From a plasmid, in NCBI RefSeq assembly GCF_056746865.1, contig NZ_JBWKMP010000004.1: a stretch of DNA of 64,000 bases. One strand, 5' to 3'. How positions within the stretch are numbered: position 1 is the stretch's first letter; every line of letters begins with the position of its first letter. Of the stretch, positions 61,901-64,000 are shown piece after piece. Position numbers: made by a program.

Positions 61901-64000
61901 TGAAGTCTCCCGGAACAATGTTGATTTTCATCTGGTGCTGGAGCTGGGGCAGTGTGTATGCCACTACGGGCCGGAGAAGGAATACCATATTGTTTCCGCT
62001 GACAAGGGATATGACGGTATTGTCCGGACACTGCAGGCGCGCGGGATTCGCTGCCGTCGCGTCTCCCCGGATAAGGCGTCATCAGTAAAGATGGCTGCAC
62101 CCGACATGGATATCGTTATCCGGTGGGCAAACAAAATTCAACAGGCAGCGCGGGAGGTTCGTAATATGCCGGTAACAGAAAAGACATTTAATAATTATTT
62201 AAAATCACAGATGCGCGGTGAATGGCGTGATGTCCTGACCAGAGGTATCCGGGATGAACTGGTCCGTCGCGGGGTAATGAAAATTCAGGGGAATAAAATC
62301 ATCTGGTAAGACTGCCAGAATAAAATGATATTTATTTTATTTATAAAAACAGAAAGGTCGAAAATCAATAATGGCATTTATTTCCATGACAAGACAGAAA
62401 GCGCCGTACAGATATGCAAGCAAGACCCGGTTATCGATAAGACGAACAGACTCAGGCTCTGCCGGGTGTTATGTGACGGTTGCCGTTCGGGGGAAGCAGG
62501 AATTTATTATTGCTGAACTTGATTCAGAAATCCGGAAAATCAGGCTGAAACTGACGGACTCCTATGAAGAAGGGGTAAGGCTGTCTTCGGGCACGTTTAC
62601 GCTTCCGGCCAGATTCTGCCGGGAAATACTGCCGGACGACGTCAGGAGTATCACCATTATTCTGGAAAAAAGCGACGATGAGTGGTGGTACGGGAGTTAC
62701 TGATATGTGGCAGAACTCCGGACACTGACGCCTTCGCGTTGCTCAGTTGTCCAACCCCGGAAACGGGAAAAAGCAAGTTTTCCCCGCTCCCGGCGTTTCT
62801 GCAATAAAAAGCAGGGGCATGGAGGTCGTCGTAACCAGACAGGAATGTGGTATTATCGCGGCGGGTGTCTGAGCCTTTCTGGTTCAGGCAAGACGCAGGT
62901 ACCAGAAATGCGAAGACCCCACTCGTTAATCCATTAACTCGTGAGGTCTGCATGAAGTACTTAGCACTACTGATTGTAGCCTCTTCTTTGCAGAGAGGTC
63001 AAAGTTTATGACGAAATATGCCCTTATCGGGTTGCTCGCCGTGTGTGCCACGGTATTGTGTTTTTCACTGATATTCAGGGAACGGTTATGTGAACTGAAT
63101 ATTCACAGGGGAAATACAGTGGTGCAGGTAACTCTGGCCTACGAAGCACGGAAGTAAGCTGCCGGGCGGGGACGGAAGTCCCCGCTTTCCGGAAGTGTGA
63201 GGTATTTCAGGGGCAGACACCCGACATGCCAGAAACAGCCGGTCCCGCCCGGGGCCGGCATCCAGGTTAAGGCATTTCCTGTTTTTCAGTCATTTCATCA
63301 TCAAAATCACATTAAACGGTCGTAATCAGACATGATTTGTGCGCCAACACAGATCATCATCACAACTTTCAAGTCGCTGATTTCAAAAAACTGTAGTATC
63401 CTCTGCGAAACGATCCCTGTTTGAGAATTGAGGAGGCGAGATGTCGCAGACAGAAAATGCAGTGACTTCCTCATCAGGTACAAAGCGAGCATACCGAAAA
63501 GGTAATCCTCTGACGCTTGCAGAACGTCAGCAGGCATCTCTGGCAAGAAAACGTGCCACACATAAAGAACTCAGAGTGTTCATTCCTGCTGCGTTAAAAG
63601 CGCAATTACAGGAGATGTGTGACGCTGAAGGTGTTACTCAGGCTGAGATGATTGCTGAACTGATAAAGCAGAAGAGTGCTTTCAGCTAACTAAAATGTAG
63701 CGACATCACATTCTTGCCTGTTTGTGGTGTGCGTGATAGATTGCTGATCGTTTAAGGAATTTTGTGGCTGGCCACGCCATAAGGTGGCAGGGAACTGGTT
63801 CTGATGTGGATGTACAGGAGCCAGAAAAGCGAAAACCCCGATAATCTTCTTTAACTTTGGCGAGTCAGAAAGATTACCGGGGCTAACAAGAAACTGCATA
63901 GAAGCTGTTGCTCTATGCGGGGAGTATAGTTATATGCCCGGAAAAGTTCAAGACTTCTTTCTGTGCTCACTCCTTCTGTGCAACATAAGTGCAGGATGGT

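Follow-up and report, generated by a model that had tools for sequence, protein, structure and literature searches.

Does the plasmid analysed here encode a second toxin of the Hok family beside its replicon and, if so, to which system does it belong and where does its antisense RNA lie? The question was raised by an earlier note on this DNA (64,000 nucleotides of contig NZ_JBWKMP010000004.1, hereafter the window), which described a 49-aa open reading frame (ORF) with an overlapping 19-codon leader ORF at 62952-63157 and likened it to the SrnB/PndA-type toxins. Our analysis indicates that the locus is srnB/srnC, a hok-family type I toxin-antitoxin module of the post-segregational killing kind lying between finO and the IncFII replicon, and we put the probability of this reading at roughly 90%. 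The srnB/srnC system has been characterised since 1991. It is a homologue of hok that is regulated by an antisense RNA and kills plasmid-free segregants (PMC4147584; PMC3874152), and PMC4147584 names plasmid maintenance as the role of srnB, with reference to Nielsen et al. 1991. Expression of SrnB lyses E. coli, and SrnC delays this lysis (PMC12390103). The locus is thus not new as a system: srnB/srnC is known, annotated and already recorded on such plasmids, and IncFII F33:A-:B- plasmids have been listed with both the hok-sok and the srnBC addiction systems (PMC6052338). The features of the locus are collected in Table 1, together with the position of the hok locus of the same plasmid.

Table 1. 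Coordinates of the srnB-type locus and of the hok/mok/sok locus in the window.
Feature	Position	Strand	Basis or detail
Putative toxin-mRNA promoter, extended -10 TGgTATTAT	62848-62856	+	Read from sequence; position relative to hok promoter
srnB-type toxin mRNA, ~400 nt (predicted)	62863-63262	+	5' end by homology, +/-2 nt; 3' end just past terminal hairpin
tac-like 5' element CGGGUGUCUG	62862-62871	+	Pairs with 63214-63223 in minimum free energy (MFE) fold
Leader (mok-equivalent) ORF, 19 codons, MKYLALLIVASSLQRGQSL	62952-63011	+	ATG at 62952; TGA at 63009-63011
Predicted SrnC-type antisense RNA, ~60 nt	~62967 to 62906	-	Promoter, hairpin fold, analogy with Sok
Antisense promoter: -35 TTGACC (63002-62997), 18-nt spacer, -10 TACAAT (62978-62973)	62973-63002	-	Promoter scan; allele conservation
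SrnB'-type toxin ORF, 49 aa, Hok/Gef	63008-63157	+	Pfam PF01848; SRNB_ECOLI residues 20-68; WP_001312851.1
fbi-like 3' element CAGACACCCG	63214-63223	+	57 nt past toxin stop codon; MFE fold
Terminal 3' hairpin GCCGGUCCC-GCCC-GGGGCCGGC	63238-63259	+	MFE fold; conserved in 7/8 alleles
hok/mok/sok locus	23364-23800	+	mok 23479-23691 (70 aa); hok 23537-23695

The two ORFs are present as the earlier note had described them, and the product of the 49-codon ORF, MTKYALIGLLAVCATVLCFSLIFRERLCELNIHRGNTVVQVTLAYEARK, is exactly the peptide quoted there. This product matched the full 42-position Pfam profile for HOK_GEF (PF01848) with 37.3 bits (gathering cut-off 22; E=2.1e-9) and was identical at 49 of 49 residues to the C-terminal part, residues 20-68, of the 68-aa SrnB protein of plasmid F (SRNB_ECOLI), which bears out its assignment to the SrnB type of Hok-family toxins. 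Its scores were below the cut-offs of the NCBIfam Hok models, reaching 34.4 against 89 for the HokA equivalog (NF007290) and 32.9 against 73 for a Hok-family subfamily (NF007279). The toxin is therefore not an orthologue of HokA and falls outside the narrow NCBIfam subfamily model, which fits SrnB being a separate branch. The ORF had been called invisible to the ORF track; this holds for the length threshold of that track only, as RefSeq/PGAP annotates the same ORF as 'Hok/Gef family protein' (WP_001312851.1). PGAP apparently names SrnB-type toxins by a route other than these NCBIfam Hok models.

The gene order around the locus, read from a RefSeq plasmid 99.98% identical to the window, is traX, finO, a hypothetical gene, a PIN-domain gene, a second hypothetical gene, the srnB-type ORF, repA2/copB, tap and repA, with the CopA RNA found by Rfam at 63827-63916. 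The toxin ORF therefore sits directly upstream of copB/repA2, tap and repA, that is, beside the replicon, where the earlier note had placed it. Two ORFs lie between finO and srnB: the PIN-domain ORF at 61683-62309 (PF18475, PIN7) and, at 62371-62703, an ORF of 110 aa with no Pfam or NCBIfam match. The locus is widespread. At least 2,720 plasmid records contain a 631-bp srnB region that is 99% or more identical, and the region was present in 3,414 of 5,426 complete E. coli genomes. The leader region is carried by 2,068 records from complete E. coli genomes, 142 of which are at least 99% identical to the window allele.

We compared the window locus with F-type loci, taken as those that encode the exact SRNB_ECOLI protein. 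Nucleotide identity is ~98% over the stretch that begins with the mRNA promoter and ends with the 3' hairpin. Antisense promoter and hairpin, tac and fbi are shared, and the loci are positioned alike, downstream of traX and finO and directly upstream of IncFII-type copB (RepA2)/Tap/RepA. Three changes set the window allele apart from that of F: one nucleotide is deleted and an A is replaced by G just behind the leader ATG, and a single position is changed in the antisense hairpin. The first ~10 nt of the predicted window antisense RNA differ from those of F. The similarity ends at about -24 of the mRNA promoter, the sequences further upstream being unrelated. A more distant relative is pndA/pndB/pndC of R483 and other IncI/K plasmids, which encodes a Hok-family toxin 45-50% identical (tblastn) and has a leader scoring 123-132 bits against Rfam model RF01794 and a tac/fbi pair (5'-GGGCGC / GCGCCC-3') at stop+58. 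The pnd system differs from the window locus in toxin subgroup, antisense sequence, plasmid backbone and location.

Toxin mRNAs of hok-type systems are closed by pairing between their ends, and we examined the window locus for the corresponding elements. RF01794 matched positions 62863-63020 with 90.9 bits (gathering score 59) over model positions 1-157, and the putative 5' end of the mRNA coincides with the start of this model; other members of the family likewise begin with GGG. The model is named 'sok antitoxin', but at both type I loci of the window it matches the mRNA-sense strand and not the one that Sok or SrnC is read from, and its 157 positions exceed Sok more than twofold. A match to it therefore marks a hok-type leader rather than the strand or limits of an antitoxin. 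The extended -10 motif of the putative mRNA promoter is invariant in seven of eight aligned srnB alleles, and the locus agrees with its F-type counterpart at every position from around -24 onwards; no good -35 was found before the motif.

Folding of 62861-63262 gave an MFE structure (z=-5.8) in which the 5' and 3' ends are closed on each other. The long-range tac/fbi pairing, for which the earlier note had proposed a folding check, was found in this structure as 10 Watson-Crick pairs between the two elements listed in Table 1, upstream of the terminal hairpin, an arrangement of the hok/sok type. When the 3' end was removed in the folding, the 5' end of the mRNA refolded as a local hairpin, as the hok model requires. 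Equivalent 5'/3' pairs occur at stop+38 to stop+61 in six diverged loci drawn from hok, IncI/K pnd, Providencia, Vibrio and Aeromonas, with compensatory changes between the two elements (GGGUGU/ACACCC, GGCGCU/AGCGCC, GGGUGC/GCACCC, GGGAGC/GCUCCC and GGGCGC/GCGCCC). It is on this constant position and these compensatory changes across loci, not on significance at any single locus, that the support for tac/fbi rests. Shuffle tests locus by locus were marginal or weak (16 of 300 shuffles for the window locus), and a test for a contiguous helix that admitted G-U pairs was powerless, shuffled 5' ends also giving helices of ~8 bp. The family elements were picked by their complementarity, so that a formal count of covariation would be circular. 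The terminal hairpin downstream of fbi presumably marks the end of the transcript and forms the segment removed by 3' processing. No U-run was found after it, and the hairpin itself may act as the terminator.

The leader ORF is preceded by a Shine-Dalgarno sequence, GAGG, at 62944-62947, 5 nt 5' of its ATG, and its stop codon and the toxin start codon overlap in the sequence ATGA. This overlap is an arrangement that favours translational coupling, in which translation of the toxin would depend on that of the leader. The leader is out of frame with the toxin through the 1-nt deletion, which falls just after ATGAAGTA relative to F-type alleles; in srnB of F, by contrast, the extra nucleotide joins leader and toxin in frame as one continuous ORF of 68 codons, the 68-aa SRNB_ECOLI. 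The layout is nevertheless that of hok/sok-type loci, with an upstream leader overlapping the toxin start and a predicted antisense RNA whose target is the initiation region of the leader.

For this antisense RNA, the earlier note had suggested the minus strand at about 62900-62970 and left its limits open. A scan of 62600-63450 returned a single sigma-70-like site, on the minus strand inside the leader ORF, that agrees with the consensus at 10 of 12 positions; 0.6 sites are expected by chance in such a scan, and the single match would be weak evidence alone. The site is, however, nearly invariant among srnB alleles (mean entropy 0.04), and it lies at the place that corresponds to the Sok promoter within mok. 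An RNA starting from it would run from ~62967 to ~62906, within the interval proposed. In this prediction, ~18 unpaired nucleotides at the 5' end are complementary to the leader ATG and first codons, and a hairpin (62948-62915 on the minus strand) covers the leader Shine-Dalgarno sequence and is followed by a U-rich 3' tail to ~62906. No U-run was found after the hairpin. The predicted RNA folds with z=-4.17, and its layout parallels that of the 64-nt Sok of the window's own hok locus. The locus thus appears to have what marks hok/sok-type antitoxins, a cis-encoded antisense RNA of ~60-65 nt that is read from a promoter inside the leader and consists of a 5' tail and a terminal hairpin.

By homology with srnB of F and hok/sok of R1, the module would work as follows. 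A stable mRNA of ~400 nt would be made from ~62863 and, while tac and fbi are paired, would be closed to ribosomes and to the antisense RNA alike. Slow trimming from the 3' end would strip off fbi and let the 5' end refold, opening the leader ORF at 62952 to ribosomes; those ending at the leader TGA would restart on the ATG that overlaps it, which would yield the 49-aa membrane toxin. As long as a cell keeps the plasmid, the short-lived antisense RNA of ~60 nt would pair with the leader start, block translation and trigger cleavage by RNase III. When the plasmid is lost, the antisense RNA would be gone first and the cell would be killed. We infer that the window allele, like its homologues, is toxic when expressed and stabilises the plasmid.

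The earlier note had also named a canonical hok/mok locus in the leading region as the other of two independent type I loci. This locus is present, preceded by ssb, a parB-like gene, psiB and psiA and followed by the X transglycosylase and oriT/traJ. Its hok product is identical to Hok of R1 (HOK_ECOLX), RF01794 matches at 23363-23539 with 88.9 bits, and its mRNA folds with tac/fbi closure (z=-8.9). The hok/mok/sok (parB) system of R1 corresponds to flm of F and has the same architecture as the srnB locus, both matching RF01794: each combines an mRNA of ~400 nt with tac/fbi closure and a Hok/Gef toxin with an antisense RNA of ~60 nt that lies over the leader start and has its promoter inside the leader. 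The two loci of the window differ in several respects. Their toxins share 39% identity over 41 residues; mok has 70 codons and spans nearly all of hok, whereas the srnB-type leader has 19 codons; Sok and the SrnC-type RNA have a hairpin core in common but have diverged, above all in their 5' tails; and one locus lies in the leading region, the other beside the replicon. Because the antisense RNAs have diverged, especially in the 5' tails, cross-regulation between the two loci seems unlikely. With different antisense tails and toxins only 39% identical, the two systems are probably independent. Both loci claimed by the earlier note are therefore real, and their independence is probable.

Several other elements of the window were recorded in passing. 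Two leading-region repeats of ~630 bp, at 18488-19118 (upstream of ssb) and 23967-24594 (downstream of hok), are 97.8% identical, and a third, partial copy lies at 15353-15790 (89%). The matching RefSeq plasmid labels these repeats 'frameshifted single-stranded DNA-binding protein'; they may correspond to the single-strand promoter/initiation elements that recur in F leading regions. Rfam also matched antisense RNAs on the minus strand, namely AS-traI (57190-57266), AS-traG (47700-47785) and AS-pc01 (15926-16027), all three of which were first described on plasmid pHK01. A FinP/traJ 5' UTR match lies at 27530-27639.

How the window allele relates to other srnB alleles was assessed in a survey of 124 loci, made up of matches to an invariant 22-mer in one metagenome scan and of loci already collected. 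The in-frame form of the leader with a 49-aa toxin was the most frequent of those counted (73/124); a 19-codon leader with an intact toxin occurred in 26, in six sequence variants, and the toxin was truncated to 44 aa in 14. A 1-nt indel thus toggles the leader between the in-frame 68-codon form of F and the separate 19-codon form of the window, and both forms coexist in nature. Across 57 distinct full-length alleles, variation along the transcript peaked at 62955-62967, 13 nt directly after the leader ATG, with a mean entropy of 0.43 as against 0.175 at third-codon positions of the toxin and 0.04 in both the 5' leader and the antisense promoter, figures in which the adjacent 22 nt are invariant by design of the search, metagenome contigs contribute errors and phylogeny is ignored. 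Windows of 12 nt in this hotspot held eight haplotypes, compared with a median of two for the transcript. The hotspot coincides with the 5' tail by which SrnC is predicted to recognise its target, and with that target; the frame-switching indel falls there. It is conceivable, though on balance doubtful, that srnB/srnC loci form several antisense-specificity classes. Alternatively, the hotspot may be no more than the only part of the RNA that is free of constraint.

One allele in the collection, on pCTX-M-15_22372 (NZ_CP040398.1, 311-745), is apparently degenerate. Its mRNA promoter and tac region have been swapped for unrelated sequence beside a DUF2726 pseudogene, and a 2-nt deletion leaves a toxin of 44 aa. 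The allele still has its antisense promoter and hairpin. Alleles of this type make up about one tenth of the sample.

On a plasmid that already has hok/sok, a second killing module looks redundant, and the concentration of allele variation in the antisense recognition tail fits distinct specificities between competing plasmids; a functional module whose main selected role is something other than killing, such as excluding phages or competing with other F-like plasmids in the same cell, would account for both. We regard this as improbable. Plasmid maintenance is the role given to srnB in the literature (Nielsen et al. 1991, as cited in PMC4147584), and killing and other roles are in any case not mutually exclusive.

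A second alternative is that the window carries an inactive relic of srnB, in which the leader-shifting 1-nt deletion has uncoupled translation of the toxin and the module is carried along passively. It is by this very indel that the window allele departs from the experimentally studied allele of F, and degenerate alleles do exist, as the one on pCTX-M-15_22372 illustrates with its missing mRNA promoter and tac and its 44-aa toxin. In the window, however, promoter, tac, fbi, antisense promoter and the full 49-aa toxin are all intact, and the overlap of the leader stop with the toxin ATG favours coupling. The 19-codon form, moreover, occurs with an intact toxin in enough loci, and in enough sequence variants, to represent a maintained class rather than a one-off lesion. 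A relic is therefore a slim prospect. That 63008-63157 is a functionless chance ORF, a thought invited by a length of only 49 codons, under the usual thresholds for listing ORFs, we reject: its Pfam and Rfam matches exceed curated cut-offs, its product is identical to SrnB and its sequence is kept in thousands of plasmids.

The reading of the locus as srnB/srnC, a killing module beside the IncFII replicon, would explain in part why plasmids of this type are stably maintained. As a discovery, it carries little weight; as an annotation, it is useful, not least in delimiting the antisense gene, which genome records omit. Beyond what was known, only the allele hotspot and the two leader frames are new, and mildly so. 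If the hotspot reflects selection, F-like plasmids would be diversifying the contact between antitoxin and target, such that the SrnC of a co-resident plasmid cannot protect cells that lose them, and the sequence and frame of the leader peptide would be irrelevant to function. The hotspot and the two frames could then be relevant to how F-like plasmids living in one cell keep their antitoxins from being shared.
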